Below, piece after piece: positions 1,074 through 8,385 of a stretch of DNA of 17,044 nucleotides. The stretch comes from Candidatus Jordarchaeales archaeon (GTDB taxonomy: Archaea; Asgardarchaeota; Jordiarchaeia; Jordiarchaeales; Freyrarchaeaceae), in contig JAWCFL010000034.1 of NCBI GenBank assembly GCA_038858525.1, positions 1 to 17,044 on the forward strand. The letters are read 5' to 3'. Under the pieces are notes generated by a model. It did no database searches. It worked only from the letters and a program-made list of their open reading frames with translations, and was not told where the DNA came from. A program made the position numbers and the translations under genes. The first letter of the stretch is position 1. Each line of letters opens with the position of its first letter.

Positions 1074-2124
1074 CTATTGTGAGGAGTATTTCTTGAAGAG
1101 GTTGATCATTCTGTCAACGTCTTCCTTGGTCTTTGCGACCTTTGACGTCCTTATGGCCTCCCTGACAGATTTCGAGTACTCTGAGACTTTTTCAGCAATG
1201 TACCTCGCCAATTCTGCGTCCATGCCTCTCCTCTTTGCAAGGTAGTTTGTCGTTATTTTCAAAAATTCATCCTTTATGTACTCTTTGAGGTGGAAGACCT
1301 GAAACCTGTCCAAAAGCTCACGTGGAAGTTTGTCGATCCTGTTGCATGCGGCTATAACTGAGCATGGGAACTTCTCAACAGCATGCATCTTGTGCTTTGT
1401 TACTATGATGCGTTGGGACTCCATGAGTGTTAGGAGGACGCTTAAGTCCTTCGGGTCGTCTATTTTCTCCAACTCGTCAATCAGTAGGATGCGGGGCTTT
1501 TCTTCAATTAACATGTCCCTGATGCCGACCTTGCTGCTAGTTCCTGCAGTTATAAATTTGGTGTTGGGAAGCCTTTCGATCTCCATCAGGAAGAGTGTCT
1601 TGGCTGTTCCTGGGGGGCCGACTAGCAGCACGTGGAACGGCTCATCTAGAGTGACGATCTTCAGCATAAAACTCTTCAAGTCGTCGTAGCCCTCTATGAC
1701 GTCAAACATGTCAGGAGGCACGCCACTCTCCACTTTCTCTGTAACGCTTTCATCGACTTGCTGTATGCTCTCATACTCCTCTATTTCCTTCATTATTCCC
1801 TCGCGATCCACGAGCAGGTACGACTTCCTCCTGCCGCCAAACGCCCTAACGATGCCTGCTATCAACAGTTTCTCCACAATCCTCCAGTGTACACCCACGT
1901 CCTTCCAGTCCCACAATGGTTTCAATCCAAGTTTTGATAACGTTTCGTTTTTCGCCCGAAGAATCTCGTCAACCTCAGATTGGTCGTAAACAGTGTTTCA
2001 ATCCAAGTTTTGATAACGTTTCGTTTTTCGCTATCTCCTGCTCCTCCTTTATTTCGTAATTTATTATTTTCTTCAACGCTTCCCTAATTTCGTCATTAGA
2101 TATTATGCTATACTTACTCGTCAT
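1074..2124 (-). pseudogene. wHTH + AAA+ ATPase (RuvB-like/MGE-type), 324 aa when reconstructed; interrupted by a 76-bp repeat+spacer insertion
   Basis: ATG at 2124 with SD GAGGTG reads MTSKYSIISNDEIREALKKIINYEIKEEQEIAKNETLSKLGLK and then stops in the insert (TGA 1975-1977). The downstream frame 1925-1074 has Walker A GPPGTAKT, Walker B LLIDELEK, sensor-1 AACN and Arg-finger LLDRF. Removing 76 bp fuses the two in frame (...SKLGLKPLWDWKDVGV...). Confidence 0.9.
1919..2031 (-). CRISPR. Single-spacer mini-array, repeat GCGAAAAACGAAACGTTATCAAAACTTGGATTGAAAC (37 bp) x2 with a 39-bp spacer
   Basis: Exact 37-bp direct repeats at 1919-1955 and 1995-2031 flank a unique 39-bp segment at 1956-1994. The minus-strand 3' end is the canonical ATTGAAAC. 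Confidence 0.8.
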
Positions 2125-2944: not shown

Positions 2945-3747
2945 CTAGCGGGGATGGGAGGAAGGAGGAGCAGGGCCTGACGGAGGAACAGACGGAGGAA
3001 CAGCAGGTCGAGGAACAGTGGGTTGAGAAACACCATACCTCTGAAAGGTACTATAGAAAGCCACTGCCCAAAGTATCGAAGACACAAACATTAGTATTAA
3101 TAGGACGACACTAACAATGTTTAGGATTCCTGCTGCTAGAGTGACTGAGGGAGACCCTGTATCTTCTCTTACTGTGGTTCCAGCGATGCCAGAAGTGAGC
3201 AAGAATGCACCTAGAGCTGTGAGTGAGAAAAACAAGGGCCAAATCGTTGGTTGAGTGACGCGCACTAGAAAACCTAGAAAAGATGGACTCTGTTCTACTG
3301 ATAATAACATGAATATATATATGGAACCGGTCCTGTTAATCTCTCTATTAATATTAAAATATATAGTATGAGGGTCACTGGGGAGACAATAAGACCAATG
3401 ATGAATGTGACCATTCCAGAGGTTCTTCCTGTGGCTTTATGGATGCCGTAGAAGCCTAAGCTAATCAGAAGGACGTGCAGAAACAGGAAAATCCCCGTCA
3501 TCGCTGAAACAATCCCAAAAGTCGGCCAAACAGATTCAACGACAAAGAGGTAGTTAAAGAAGAGTAACATTGCCATGGAGTAAGGTATCGGACGTATTGC
3601 AATAAACGGGGATGATAATAAATAGGCGATATAATCACCTATTGAATATAAATTGCTGAACAAGATTATGTGGTAGACGAATATTGGAAAGGCTATTGTT
3701 CCGATTATTCCTCCGGCCATCCCCATTAGTAGCATTGCTCTGCTCAC
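2945..3747 (-). pseudogene. Polytopic membrane protein with Pro-rich C-tail, split into two ORFs (3747-3295 and 3310-2945) by a frameshift at an (AT)5 tract
   Basis: Both ORFs are strongly hydrophobic and overlap at (AT)5, 3313-3322. Deleting one AT unit gives a continuous ~266-aa protein (...LTGPVPYIFMLLSVEQ...). They could alternatively be two genes. Confidence 0.65.
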
Positions 3748-3806: not shown

Positions 3807-4244
3807 TAGTGGGTTGTTTGGTCTTGTTGGGGTTGTAGGGTGATTTTCGTTTAGCTGCGTGGGTGTGTTGGAGGCTTAAAGCGTTGTTTGAGCTAAAAGT
3901 GGATGCTGATCCTGCTTTCGAGAAGAGGGGGGAAGGCGATCCTGGCTTGCATTAAGAGGTGCCTCTTATCTGTCCCGTATTGTATAATCAGTAGTGATGG
4001 TGGATGGGGGTGAGGAGTTATGTTTCTATGTGGTTGGTGTTGACGAGTACGTTTGCGACTCGTAGAGGGGTCTTTATGGGAGGGGTTTCTAGGTTTGTGT
4101 TTTTGTTTTTCTTTGTGGGGTGGGGTTTGCTGGCGCTTGTTGTGTGGGTTTCGTGTGTTGCTGCTGTTGCGTGGGTTTTGGTGGTTATGTTTTTATTTTT
4201 GTTTTGTGTTGTTTTTTTGGAAGTTTATTTCTGGTGGTGTTGTT

Positions 4245-5684
4245 TTGGGGCGGACTGGGTCGACTTATAGGGCTAGGTTGGTTATGGTTTTTCATGCTTG
4301 TTTGGAGCTTCAGTCTGTTGATGGTGAGGTTCGTGTTGGTAGGCTTGCTGAGAGGGTTGATTTGACTGAGAGGGCTGTGAAGGATTATCTTGATGACCTT
4401 TCGAGTTTGGGTGTTTTGTCTTATAGGGGGGCGGGGAGGTATGTTGTTAATGAGGGTTTTGTTAAGAGTCTTGGTGAGGACTTGCTTTTTGAGCCCTCGT
4501 CTAGTGTTGTTATTGATGAGGGCTTGCTGCATGCTGGTTTGGTTGGTGTTGAGCCTGTTTCGAGGAAGGTTCAGCGTGTTTTGAGGAAGCTTGAGTTTCC
4601 CTTGGTTTCGGGGGAGGAGGTGAGGGAGCGGCTGGTTGCTGCGAGGGTTGGGGACTACGTTTTTCCGGTTAGGCTTTTGGGGGATGGGCTTGTTCTTCCG
4701 AGGTTTGCCGGTGACGTTCTTCTTGATGGTGTTTGGGTGGCTGGTTCTGCTCCTGCTCATAGTGTTCATAACTTTGTTCTTGGTGATTTTTCCGTGTTGA
4801 CTGTTGTTTGTCTGAGTGTTGGTGGCTTCGTGGGGCTGTTTGAGGGTGGTGTTCTTGATCATGAGAGGTCGGTTAGGAGGAGGATTCCTGACCTCCACTC
4901 CTTTAGGGGTGTGGAGCCCTTCGAGGAGGGGGACCCGTTCTTCGAGTTCTCGACGGACTTTCCGGAGCTTCTTCAGGCGGGGAGGAGTATTGCTGCGAGG
5001 TATCTTAGGGAGATTCAGCATTACAGGATGGGGATAAGGCTGATCGAGGAGTTTGGCGATAAGTTTGACTTCTACTTCCGGCTTGGGTCGCTTGTGCCTC
5101 ACGGCTTCCTCGTTGCCTCCAAGGTTCTGGTGAAGCTTAGGGATAAGTGTAACAGGTTGTTTTACGACCTGGTTAGGGTTGCAGGCGAGAAGGGGGTTAC
5201 GCTGGTAGGCGTTAGCCCCGTATCTATGGACAACGTTTTCTTCAGGGCGTGCAGCCAGGTGCTCGGCAAGATTCCGGGGAAGACGAACGACCTTAACTTT
5301 CTCTCCATTGTTTTGAGGGATAGGGACTCGACGTGCCTGATTGAGAGGGGGGAAGAGAAGGGGAAGCCTCCCGTGAGGGACGTCTACGAGTTTTACCTCT
5401 CGCGGAAGGGAATCGTGACGAAGTACGAGTTTGTGTCCAGGGATCCGCTGAGCGACCATAAGAGGGTGGCTGACGTAGCTTACACCCTGACCACGGCGCC
5501 TCTGAGGGAGCGGGAGGAGGCTGGGCCAAGCGTGGTCTCGGTGGCGAGGCAGGAGGCGGCGTTCAACCTTTCATCCCTCGAAAGGTCGGTTGAGCTAAGC
5601 CTCAGGGCGGGCTTCCTAGGAATGCTGGAGAAGATCCAGAGGAGGAGGGATGAGGAGAGGGCGAAGGAGGCGTTTGGAGGGTGA
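4245..5684 (+). CDS. N-terminal winged-HTH fused to a NurA-like (RNase H fold) domain, apparently lacking most catalytic residues
   Basis: Likely start is TTG 4245 after SD GGTGG; the track's 4053 start adds only low-complexity GT-rich sequence. HTH segment: VRVGRLAERVDLTERAVKDYLDDLSSLGVLSY. NurA-like blocks: WVAGS, REIQH, FRLGSL, LVGVS, NDLNFLSIVL, YEFYL...KYEF, GPSVVSVAR. It lies directly upstream of herA, the usual NurA partner. Confidence 0.75.
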   Translation: MGRTGSTYRARLVMVFHACLELQSVDGEVRVGRLAERVDLTERAVKDYLDDLSSLGVLSYRGAGRYVVNEGFVKSLGEDLLFEPSSSVVIDEGLLHAGLVGVEPVSRKVQRVLRKLEFPLVSGEEVRERLVAARVGDYVFPVRLLGDGLVLPRFAGDVLLDGVWVAGSAPAHSVHNFVLGDFSVLTVVCLSVGGFVGLFEGGVLDHERSVRRRIPDLHSFRGVEPFEEGDPFFEFSTDFPELLQAGRSIAARYLREIQHYRMGIRLIEEFGDKFDFYFRLGSLVPHGFLVASKVLVKLRDKCNRLFYDLVRVAGEKGVTLVGVSPVSMDNVFFRACSQVLGKIPGKTNDLNFLSIVLRDRDSTCLIERGEEKGKPPVRDVYEFYLSRKGIVTKYEFVSRDPLSDHKRVADVAYTLTTAPLREREEAGPSVVSVARQEAAFNLSSLERSVELSLRAGFLGMLEKIQRRRDEERAKEAFGG

Positions 5685-5689
5685 GGAGT

Positions 5690-7177
5690 ATGGGCGAGCG
5701 AGCCTTCGAGCTGGGAACGATAATATGTGAGGGCCAGACGCCTAACCACCTCGCCTTCTCTTTTCAGGTGGCTAGGGACGTCGAGGTTAAGGTTGGAGAG
5801 TACGTTGAGGTCCCGCTGGGCTTGAGCGTGATGGTTGGGCGCGTCTACTCGATTCACACTTATAACGAGTACTTTTCCAGCCCGGAGTTTCTCCAGTTCC
5901 ACCTCGAGGATGGGGTTCCGGTTCAGGCCCGCTTCCCGACGCGGATAGGAAGGTGGAGGGTGGCGAGGGTGAGGGTTGTTGGGGTGCTGCGGGGGGACAG
6001 GTTGCTGCCTCCCGAGGTTCCTCCAGAGCCGGGGGACACGGTTTACAGGGCTAAGCCCGAGCTTTTGGAGTCCTTCCTGAAGTTTAGGCCGGACGGGGTG
6101 TTTCTCGGGGTCATGAGGGGGAACAATGACGTTAAGGTTTTCCTGAACCCTGAGCTGCTTCTTCCATACCACGTGGCTGTTCTGGGGGCTACTGGGAGCG
6201 GAAAGTCCTATGCTGTAGGGGTGATCGTGGAGGAGCTTCTGGAGAAGGGGATGCCTGTGGTCGTCGTCGACCCTCACGGGGAGTACAGGTTTTTCTCGCA
6301 GAGGAACGATAACCCGGAGGAGGTTGAGAGGGCCAGGAGGATGGGGGTGACGCCCAGGGGTTTCCCGACCATGGTTTACTCGCTTGGGGAGGACGGGGAC
6401 AGGAAGCTGTCCATAAGCATAGATGACCTTAACCCCTACGCTCTGGCCGAGGTCTGCGACCTGAGCGACGCGCAGTCAGACCTCCTTTACCTGGCGTTCA
6501 GGAAGCTTGGCGGTGGAGGTTACGGGCTGGATGAGCTTGTCGGTGCGGTCAAGGCGGCGGCTAGGGAGTGGGGGTTTCAGAAGAACACGTTGACGGCGGT
6601 CCTCAGGAAGATACAGGCGCTGAACGAGTTCGTTTTTTTCGGGAAGAGTATAAGTGTGGGTGACCTCGTCAAGCCAGGCCACTTGTCTGTTCTAGACCTG
6701 AGTGGGGGGGTGGATGAGGAGATTAGGAGGACTGTTGTTGGAGTGGTTTTAGAGAGGATGTTTAACGCTAGGAGGAGGGGGGAGATTCCTCCAGTGGTGG
6801 TGGTCGTCGAGGAAAGCCACAGGTTCGCCCCTCAGGGGGTGAGGAGCTACTGTGGCTCGGTGCTGAGGAGGATCGCGAGGGAGGGGAGAAAGTTCGGGGT
6901 GACGCTTTGCCTGACCAGCCAGAGGGTTGCGGGGCTAGATAAGGACGTCCTGACGCAGTGTGGAACGAAGATCATCCTACGCATAGAGGGAGCCTACGAC
7001 ATAGAGTACCTCAAGCCGATCTTAGACTACGCCAGTGCTGATGAAGCTGAGAGGATACCTCTCCTACCTACGGGGACCGCCATGGTTACCGGAATGGCGA
7101 CGAGGACGCCGATTCTGGTGGATGTGAGGCCGAGAAAGACGAAGCACGGGGGAGGACACCAGGCGTTCTGGAGATAG
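5690..7177 (+). CDS. herA: HerA-family ATPase/helicase (HAS barrel + FtsK/HerA motor)
   Basis: N-terminal HAS-barrel-like region, Walker A HVAVLGATGSGKS, VVDPHGEY, Walker B VVVEESHRFAP, and AREGRKFG...TSQR. ATG 5690 follows SD GAGGAG, 5 nt after the NurA-like stop. Confidence 0.93.
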   Translation: MGERAFELGTIICEGQTPNHLAFSFQVARDVEVKVGEYVEVPLGLSVMVGRVYSIHTYNEYFSSPEFLQFHLEDGVPVQARFPTRIGRWRVARVRVVGVLRGDRLLPPEVPPEPGDTVYRAKPELLESFLKFRPDGVFLGVMRGNNDVKVFLNPELLLPYHVAVLGATGSGKSYAVGVIVEELLEKGMPVVVVDPHGEYRFFSQRNDNPEEVERARRMGVTPRGFPTMVYSLGEDGDRKLSISIDDLNPYALAEVCDLSDAQSDLLYLAFRKLGGGGYGLDELVGAVKAAAREWGFQKNTLTAVLRKIQALNEFVFFGKSISVGDLVKPGHLSVLDLSGGVDEEIRRTVVGVVLERMFNARRRGEIPPVVVVVEESHRFAPQGVRSYCGSVLRRIAREGRKFGVTLCLTSQRVAGLDKDVLTQCGTKIILRIEGAYDIEYLKPILDYASADEAERIPLLPTGTAMVTGMATRTPILVDVRPRKTKHGGGHQAFWR

Positions 7178-7369
7178 GAGCAGGAAGGACGTTAAGCGGA
7201 TAACGGGTCTGACGGGGTGCTGGTTCTCGAAAAAAGGGTTCTTTCGTGATGAACGCTGGGGTGGCTTCAACCAGCATCTCCACTTTTCACGCCTCGCGTT
7301 GTTGGAACGAAAGGGTCATTTATTCGTTCTGCTCATAGAGTGATTGTCCTTTTCGTGGTGGGCGGGATT

Positions 7370-8197
7370 GTGCCTTTGGGTTTGGTTGTGAAGGTTTACG
7401 CTTTGAACTCTGGGGGAGTGAAGCGCTTCTCAGGTCACCTTGTTAGAGGAGGGCTACTGGGATTTTTCAGCAGAGTTGACCCTGATCTCGCCGGTGCGCT
7501 TCATGCACCGGACCAGCTTAGGCCTTACAGTGTTTCTCCCATTTTTCCATTGGGGGAAAAGAGGATCCACGGAGACCTTTTACATGTTAAGACGGGGGAC
7601 GAGTTCCAGTTTCGCTTAGGATTCCTCGTGGATGACATCGGAAAGAGGCTACTCGAGCGGCTTTTCGACTTAAAGGTTAAGCTGGGAGAGGTAGAGTTCT
7701 CGCTGGTCGAAGTCAACCTGAGAAAGAAGAACTACGACGAGTTCGTTAAGGACGTGAACGTAAGCGACAGGTTTAGAGTGTTTTTCAGGACGCCGACGCA
7801 GCTCTCAGTGCGGGGCGTCGACTTCCCCTTCTTGTTCCCTGACCCACGCTACGTTTACCCCAGTATTGCGAGGCTCTGGAACGCCTTCGCCCCCGAGTAC
7901 GTTAGAGTCGACGTTGACGAGCTTTACAGGTGGGTTTCGGACAACGTTTACGTGCGCAACTACTCCCTCAGGACGGTGAACGTGACGATGGGGAAGGAGA
8001 GGAGGGTGGCGGGCTTCACGGGATACGCGGACTTCTACATGAAGAGCACCGACGGTTACGCTTCATGGGTCACGATCCTCTCAGAGTACGCCACATACTC
8101 AAACGTCGGAGTGAAGAGGACGGGGGGAATGGGCGTGGTGGACGTCGAGCCCCCAAAAAAGGGAAAAAGCGAAGCCGACTCCCCCCAGGATGCGTGA
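7370..8197 (+). CDS. cas6: CRISPR precursor RNA endoribonuclease Cas6
   Basis: Motifs GHLVRG, ALH...RPYSVSP, FRTPT, FPDP...SIARLWNAF and GFTG, plus the C-terminal Gly-rich loop NVGVKRTGGMG. Likely start is GTG 7370 (track start 7340). Confidence 0.93.
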   Translation: MPLGLVVKVYALNSGGVKRFSGHLVRGGLLGFFSRVDPDLAGALHAPDQLRPYSVSPIFPLGEKRIHGDLLHVKTGDEFQFRLGFLVDDIGKRLLERLFDLKVKLGEVEFSLVEVNLRKKNYDEFVKDVNVSDRFRVFFRTPTQLSVRGVDFPFLFPDPRYVYPSIARLWNAFAPEYVRVDVDELYRWVSDNVYVRNYSLRTVNVTMGKERRVAGFTGYADFYMKSTDGYASWVTILSEYATYSNVGVKRTGGMGVVDVEPPKKGKSEADSPQDA

Positions 8198-8277: not shown

Positions 8278-8385
8278 TTATCAGGGTTACTATCTCTCGA
8301 TTTAATTTGTAGCCGATTGAGGATTAGGGGTAAATACCGATGAACTTAAGTATCAGGGTTGTTGTCTCTCGATTTAATTTGTAGC
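8278..8385 (-). CRISPR. Candidate degenerate single-spacer mini-array, repeat ~GCTACAAATTAAATCGAGAGACAACAACCCTGATAC
   Basis: 35-bp direct repeats at 8279-8313 and 8351-8385 (3 mismatches) are separated by 37 unique bp. Minus-strand ends GCTACAA.../...TGATAC resemble GTTGCAA.../...TGAAAC. The unit begins about 80 bp after the cas6 stop. Confidence 0.5.

Follow-up and report, generated by a model that had tools for sequence, protein, structure and literature searches.

The window analysed here, 17,044 nt long, is the entire contig C34 (JAWCFL010000034.1) in the genome of a Candidatus Jordarchaeales archaeon (GCA_038858525.1; 2.09 Mb in 63 contigs, 47% G+C, completeness 92.7%, contamination 2.8%). 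It contains a gene for an MCM-like AAA+ ATPase that is broken by a short structure in which two identical segments of 37 nt enclose a unique insert of 39 nt. [quoted passage not shown] Off-target integration by Cas1-Cas2 had been proposed in an earlier reading made from the window alone (the sequence-only reading), and the proposal now has strong support from three sister loci in the same genome, from empty sites at two of these, from an insert at one of them that derives from cas1, from insert and duplication lengths that match those of native spacers and repeats, and from the presence of cas1-cas2 modules.

All parts of the interrupted gene lie on the minus strand. From an ATG at position 2124, with the Shine-Dalgarno-like sequence GGTGAGGTGA upstream, the frame runs for 31 codons and then enters the first copy of the duplicated segment (1995-2031; gene-sense sequence GCGAAAAACGAAACGTTATCAAAACTTGGATTGAAAC), which supplies the in-frame codons AKNETLSKLGLK and whose gene-sense end is GGATTGAAAC. 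Past this copy the frame leaves the gene and meets a stop at 1975-1977, giving an N-terminal fragment (1975-2124) of 49 residues in total. The insert, which is of spacer length (1956-1994; gene sense ACTGTTTACGACCAATCTGAGGTTGACGAGATTCTTCGG), is followed by the second copy (1919-1955), and this runs on in frame into the remainder of the gene, an open reading frame (ORF) of 283 aa (1074-1925) that contains P-loop, MCM/AAA and AAA_5 domains and matched no specific NCBIfam or PADLOC family. The two copies are letter-identical, and identity breaks off exactly at all four of their borders. Searches of the 63 contigs recovered the 37-mer only twice (up to 8-9 mismatches) and the insert a single time (up to 9 mismatches), which confirms the exact in-frame 37-bp duplication around a unique 39-bp insert that the sequence-only reading had described, and shows that the 37-mer is no multi-copy canonical repeat. 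Removal of one copy together with the insert (76 nt) produces, as had also been claimed, a single ORF of 975 nt and 324 aa from the ATG at 2124, collinear with intact orthologues. An exact 37-nt repeat at such a spacing cannot be attributed to chance. Rfam and tRNA scans of the window gave no matches.

The structure in the AAA+ gene is not alone in the genome. A blind k-mer scan for short-range direct repeats picked up CRISPR arrays, ordinary tandem protein repeats and, apart from these, just four isolated units, all of one geometry; a wider survey of the genome, taking in every exact direct repeat of 28 nt or more with a spacing between 30 and 1000 nt, added no other non-tandem, non-array pair of this kind. 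The AAA+ unit occupies C34 1919-2031, with segments of 37/39/37 nt, and causes a frameshift. A second unit (C15, 37573-37685; 39/35/39 nt) splits a gene for glutamate dehydrogenase (GDH), in which a frame of 302 aa is restored when 74 nt are taken out. A third (C19, 18942-19053; 37/38/37 nt) is intergenic and has no coding effect, and the fourth (C29, 11732-11843; 37/38/37 nt) lies within a DUF2400 gene adjoining csx1, to which it adds 25 aa in frame. The four inserts are mutually unrelated, as are the four duplicated segments, and the periods of the units are 74-76 nt. The duplication has the length of a native repeat, being exactly 37 nt at three of the loci and apparently 39 nt in the GDH gene, where the 39/35 split sums to 74 nt and would fit 37+37 with a 2-nt coincidence at the border.

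Two of the sister sites are known in both states. The GDH site is empty, with one copy of the 39-mer and no insert, in L015, L018 and L020, and it is occupied by the full repeat-insert-repeat in this genome, L016, L017 and L019; the two alleles agree in their flanks except that the empty one has a G-run longer by one G, 62 nt ahead of the site. Similarly, the DUF2400 site is empty in L035 and L039 and occupied in L036 and in this genome. Two other assemblies, L037 and L038, were considered as carriers of a longer insert at the DUF2400 site and were rejected because scaffold N-gaps fall exactly there. The intergenic unit on C19 recurs in six further assemblies, one of them from ENA, and no empty allele was seen.

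Two of these sites show additional variation. The G-run near the GDH site reads GGGGGG in the scar-free lineage (L015/L018/L020) and GGGGG in the scarred one (L009); because of the extra G, the GDH gene is split in the scar-free lineage too, by a lesion of another kind. At the C19 site, three assemblies (L045, L048, L050) have an insertion sequence element with a serine resolvase and TnpB between the scar and an ABC-ATPase gene, which this genome lacks.

The C19 insert (C19:18979-19016) is an exact 38-nt copy of C50:9832-9869, from the sense strand of a cas1 ORF (C50:9207-10229). The identity with cas1 ends precisely at the 38-nt borders, and these exact borders therefore fix the repeat at 37 nt and the spacer at 38 nt at this locus. 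To our knowledge, no process other than CRISPR spacer integration copies spacer-sized DNA to another place and duplicates 37 bp of the target there. The protospacer, read on the spacer-sense strand, is preceded by ...GAGTTG and followed by TGAGGC..., a single case and hence too few for a protospacer-adjacent motif (PAM). If it were ever expressed as a guide, the C19 insert would be a self-targeting spacer directed against the adaptation module.

The dimensions of the four units can be compared with those of the native arrays, whose repeats fall into three families. Long repeats occur in two arrays, at C33:1543-1802 (36/37-nt hairpin repeats, ending in ...GTCCCCAAACATGGGGATTGAAAG in the sense of the CRISPR RNA (crRNA), with periods of 73-76 nt) and at C49:21-280 (37-nt repeats, periods 74-75 nt); searches of four further genomes from the same taxonomic family found neither of the long repeats. 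Native spacers are about 36-39 nt long, and the period of the AAA+ scar, 76 nt (37 + 39), is within the range of the native long-repeat arrays. The window itself contains a canonical array (C34 301-531, plus strand) with three spacers of 36-38 nt and a 30-nt repeat, GTTGCAAGAATACCTATAAGGGCTTGAAAC, the last copy of which is degenerate; this array lies 1.4 kb from the AAA+ scar. The same 30-nt repeat forms the array at C33:1026-1515, next to cas1-cas2-cas4, and the periods of this family are 64-68 nt. On C33 (1026-1802), only 27 nt separate the 30-nt-repeat array from the 36/37-nt hairpin-repeat array; the degenerate repeats are on the same side in both, and their orientation as judged by the 8-nt tag contradicts that judged by repeat decay.

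Adaptation genes are present in two modules. On C33, cas1-cas2-cas4 and then type I-A genes stand right beside the arrays, and on C50 a second module, with cas2, two cas1 genes and cas4, adjoins type III-B cmr genes. The twin cas1 genes of C50 (8345-10229) make this an unusual adaptation module, in that one of them is divergent and scores 62 bits against a cut-off of 71.7 bits for TIGR00287; the twin-Cas1 module might be related to loose targeting. The scars themselves tend to lie close to CRISPR components. The AAA+ scar is 5.2 kb from cas6 (7340-8197 of the window, plus strand) and the C19 scar has a csaX/type I-A operon about 5.7 kb away, such that, with the C29 scar next to csx1, three of the four are within about 6 kb of an array or cas gene. 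Such neighbourhoods account for a few per cent of the genome, by a rough post-hoc estimate that involved no test.

The duplicated targets resemble native integration sites at one end. When each of the four is placed in its best orientation, its first 10 nt match the native repeat end CTTTCAATCC at 9, 6, 5 and 6 positions, respectively, and the summed motif score, compared with random 37-mers of the same genome, has a probability of about 1e-5 for the four loci. The score without the C34 locus, which had prompted the idea, still gives P = 0.002 for three loci. The C34 target end matches the ends of both native repeat families at 9/10 positions, that of the 30-nt family (GTTTCAAGCC) being nearly the same as CTTTCAATCC. 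The likeness to a ATTGAAAC terminus, which the sequence-only reading had remarked on, holds up in this comparison, with gene-sense GGATTGAAAC and native GGATTGAAAG agreeing at 9 of 10 positions.

The AAA+ scar is older than its identical copies might suggest. At least five other independent assemblies contain the structure. The repeat-insert-repeat, its 39-nt insert unchanged, recurs in metagenome-assembled genomes (MAGs) deposited at NCBI from other samples, namely GCA_038884015.1 (L006), GCA_038883015.1 (L007), GCA_038881135.1 (L008) and GCA_038846665.1 (L053), and a Logan contig breaks off inside its first copy. In L006, L007 and L008, the second copy has one T-to-A substitution; the haplotype of these three differs from the window at 4 of 852 nt in the ORF (0.5%) and at about 3% over 3.2 kb when flanks are included. 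The N-terminal fragment upstream bears a 15-bp in-frame tandem duplication (GTATAGCATAATATC) in L006 (2810-2840) and L008, absent from the window and from L007. Because of the substitution in copy 2, and of the 15-bp duplication in two of them, L006-L008 represent distinct haplotypes. Between haplotypes, the 283-aa ORF shows three non-synonymous changes and one synonymous change, a ratio that is consistent with neutrality and comes from too few changes to prove decay. Two of the MAGs, GCA_038881135.1 and GCA_038883015.1, have the AAA+ scar and lack the GDH scar, and the AAA+ event is therefore older than the GDH event. As such, the view of the insertion as recent survives only in a relative sense: every sampled strain carries the insertion, and in one haplotype the copies are no longer identical.

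The ancestral state of the gene can be read from its more distant relatives. Gene callers applied to the sister MAGs annotate the remaining ORF as a protein of 280 or 283 aa, and all near-identical AAA+ proteins on record are these truncated forms. Its closest intact relatives are a 328-aa open frame from a genome of the same genus, at 65% identity, and the metagenomic proteins P0003-P0016, at 51-68% identity. Across the junction, the window (IAKNETLSKL-GLKPLWDWKDVGV) aligns with the orthologue (IAKDEVLSKL-GVKPYWDWQDVGV) in the order of the restored ORF. None of the intact orthologues, whether from the same-genus genome or among P0003-P0016, has a 25-residue insertion at this point; each has a single copy of the segment and no insert, in agreement with the uninterrupted orthologues that the sequence-only reading had envisaged. 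A search for related loci with the AAA+ protein in a collection of genome contigs found no confirmed relative.

Formation of the scar can be pictured as a normal adaptation reaction on an abnormal substrate. Cas1-Cas2 carrying a 39-bp prespacer would have attacked a stretch of the AAA+ gene instead of the first repeat of an array, with strand transfer at two staggered points that lay 37 bp from each other; the target end GGATTGAAAC mimics the end of the native repeats. Repair of the resulting gaps would then have left the 37 bp duplicated on both sides of the insert, and the gain of 76 bp would have shifted the frame and cut the ATPase after 43 native residues, very probably inactivating it. 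The acting module was presumably the one on C33 or the one on C50. In Pyrococcus furiosus and Streptococcus thermophilus, motifs at the repeat end and in mid-repeat, together with a ruler, fix the two attack sites (PMC6698737, PMC6895254).

Several observations weigh against off-target integration by this complex. The source of the C34 insert was not found in the genome (up to 9 mismatches), in IMG/VR (exact 39-, 21- and 22-mers), in JGI metagenomes (exact 30- and 22-mers) or, with at most 3 mismatches, among 300 genomes of the phylum, so that the protospacer with a PAM that the sequence-only reading had anticipated did not materialise in any of these collections; the insert cores of C15, C19 and C29 likewise had no exact match in IMG/VR. 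No empty-site allele of the AAA+ locus was seen among the conspecific assemblies, all of which are occupied, and the polarity of the change at this locus (i.e., insertion rather than loss) is suggested by orthologues of at most 68% identity and by analogy with the sister loci. The nearby array has 30-nt and not 37-nt repeats, and the long repeat on C33 is conserved over 36 nt, its length of 37 nt apparently coming from the spacing. Because the orientation of the native arrays is ambiguous, the repeat end that is mimicked may or may not be the leader-proximal one. Finally, the role of Cas1-Cas2 as the catalyst is one that we infer.

The alternatives must each account for the same set of features. 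Were the 76 nt an archaeal mRNA intron of the bulge-helix-bulge type, spliced out to give the 324-aa protein, the length (76 = 3n+1) would be suitable, and excision between equivalent positions of the two copies would restore the frame. The fold of the region, however, shows no bulge-helix-bulge and no unusual stability (z = +0.84), and the two junctions are identical, A-rich and unable to pair with each other; introns, moreover, do not make exact 37-bp target duplications. The sister loci are presence/absence polymorphisms at the DNA level with lengths of 3n, 3n+1 and 3n+2, one of their inserts copies cas1, and the only small palindrome, AACGTT, is lost in three MAGs through the T-to-A change in their second copy. 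We therefore regard splicing as very improbable. An error of assembly or scaffolding, such as a mis-joined variant bubble, might be suspected in a MAG of 63 contigs with 43 scaffold gaps, but it has almost nothing to recommend it here, in that the same structure with the same insert recurs in independent assemblies from other samples (L006-L008, L053), the sister loci recur in ENA and Logan assemblies, and copy 2 contains a haplotype-specific substitution. The whole structure, at 113 bp, also fits within one read or one large k-mer, and the genuine artefacts of this assembly look different, consisting of exact duplicated flanks of about 127 nt around some 100 N, whereas the four loci have no N closer than 1 kb. 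Such scaffold-join duplications exist at about 30 sites (e.g., C2:26920-27273 and C3:8139-8492) and could pass for repeats.

Local duplication, replication slippage or an ordinary internal protein repeat would be in keeping with the many in-frame tandem repeats in the coiled-coil and HEAT proteins of this genome; nevertheless, the 39-nt insert bears no relation to the sequence around it, which makes the unit non-tandem (1.49 'copies'), the reading frame is lost, orthologues are without the insert, and slippage cannot carry a fragment of cas1 to another contig, all of which leaves this reading hardly worth entertaining. A less remote alternative, still unlikely, is that the events were the work of a related but non-canonical integrase, either the divergent second Cas1 of C50 acting alone or in the manner of a casposase, or an unknown enzyme of a mobile element. 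The adjacency of two cas1 genes on C50, one of them divergent, is in its favour, as are the derivation of the C19 insert from the other cas1 of that pair and the occurrence of four off-target events in one lineage, which suggests an unusually loose targeting. Against this, the lengths of insert and duplication are exactly those of native spacers and repeats, no features of casposons (terminal inverted repeats, PolB) were seen, known casposases make target duplications of about 14-15 bp, and parsimony favours the standard complex. A non-standard integrase is in any case a refinement of off-target spacer integration and not a contradiction of it.

If the structure in the AAA+ gene arose by spacer integration, it could in principle serve as a CRISPR locus, and the sequence-only reading had indeed called it a one-spacer array. 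The geometry of such an array stands; its function is unsupported. The duplicated segment (neo-repeat) folds at -1.1 kcal/mol (z = +0.6) and has no secondary structure, in contrast to the native 36/37-nt repeat, which forms a strong hairpin of -11.9 kcal/mol (z = -4.3), and neo-repeats share only their last 9-10 nt with native repeats. The C34 repeat, being unique and without a hairpin, belongs neither by sequence nor by structure to a family that host Cas6 or an effector would recognise. Given the missing hairpin and the scant resemblance to native repeats, the unit is far better seen as a scar, most likely inert, than as a working array, and would be expected to yield no crRNA. The promoter of the AAA+ gene would read the unit in the crRNA sense, with a near-canonical 8-nt tag (AUUGAAAC), and it is conceivable, though improbable, that a working guide is processed from it and that the locus is a CRISPR array at birth.

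Two further units in the genome bear some likeness to the scars. Between cas6 and hdrA, in intergenic sequence of the window (8279-8385, plus strand), is a unit of 35/37/35 nt with three transitions between its copies; L053-L055 have it in identical form, and neither its repeat nor its insert occurs elsewhere in the genome. It may be a scar that the same process left at an earlier time, or else a duplicated regulatory element with no connection to it, and it could be, together with the short 36/37-nt array of C33 that is fused to the 30-nt array, among the older products of off-target integration. The other, at C2:110479-110583, is an in-frame repeat inside a gene, with an exact core of 27 nt and a spacing of 78 nt; it is probably a repeat internal to the protein rather than a spacer scar.

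The formation of new CRISPR loci by misdirected integration has an experimental precedent. [quoted passage not shown] As far as these accounts of the work go (Nivala, Shipman & Church 2018, Nat Microbiol 3:310), neo-CRISPR loci share with the scars described here an insert of spacer length, a duplication of host DNA with the length of the native repeat, targets that partly resemble the native site, and the liability of genes to be struck; the cases described there came from a type I-E system of E. coli with over-produced Cas1-Cas2 and supplied oligonucleotides. The present case, by contrast, is natural and comprises four events in an uncultured archaeon, with 37-bp duplications, segregating alleles and one insert derived from cas1.

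Other known elements resemble the scar in part. Like it, the native arrays of this genome have periods of 74-76 nt, spacers of 35-39 nt and a 3' end motif ...GGATTGAAA(G/C); the scar differs from them in having a coding repeat unique to its locus, one spacer, no leader and no hairpin. Mini-CRISPR arrays and solitary units borne by viruses and plasmids have repeats that match a host CRISPR family, and host Cas proteins can process them. Both they and the C34 scar consist of a single spacer between two repeats, away from cas genes, but the 'repeat' of the scar is a duplicated piece of the gene that it interrupts. Casposons, which are integrated by the Cas1 homologue casposase, share the strand-transfer chemistry and the target-site duplication. 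They are, however, several kilobases in length, with terminal inverted repeats and short duplications, whereas the scars here have inserts of 35-39 bp and duplications as long as a repeat. The AAA+ scar is a natural case of a known process, and an unusually well documented one, since the events recur, alleles segregate and one spacer is self-derived; it comes from a lineage about whose adaptation there was no prior knowledge.

Two other regions of the window deserve mention. At 2945-3747 on the minus strand, two overlapping ORFs (150 and 121 aa) in the window and in L053 correspond to one gene of 266 aa in L006-L008; the frameshift is confined to certain strains and affects a gene of unknown function. 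On the way from the AAA+ gene to cas6, at 4053-7177, an ATPase of the HerA type (495 aa) is preceded by a protein of 479-543 aa that has no family match, and the two may constitute a HerA-partner pair for defence or repair.

Two roles have been proposed for off-target integration, that of a cost of CRISPR adaptation, through damage to host genes, and that of an origin of new arrays, and the support for these proposals has so far come almost wholly from E. coli that over-produces Cas1-Cas2. The record described here is a natural one, in which four independent events in one archaeal population broke two genes and lengthened the product of another by 25 residues, in which two of the four scars still segregate as empty and occupied alleles, and in which one scar holds a piece of cas1. 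The four targets make up a small natural dataset on recognition by the integrase, pointing to one repeat end and a ruler of 37 bp, and the empty and occupied alleles are ready substrates for biochemical tests. For annotators, it follows that 'frameshifted' genes in such genomes may hold spacer scars. It is conceivable, though improbable, that in this Asgard lineage the adaptation machinery strays from its targets again and again in nature, mutating genes and at the same time seeding new CRISPR loci.

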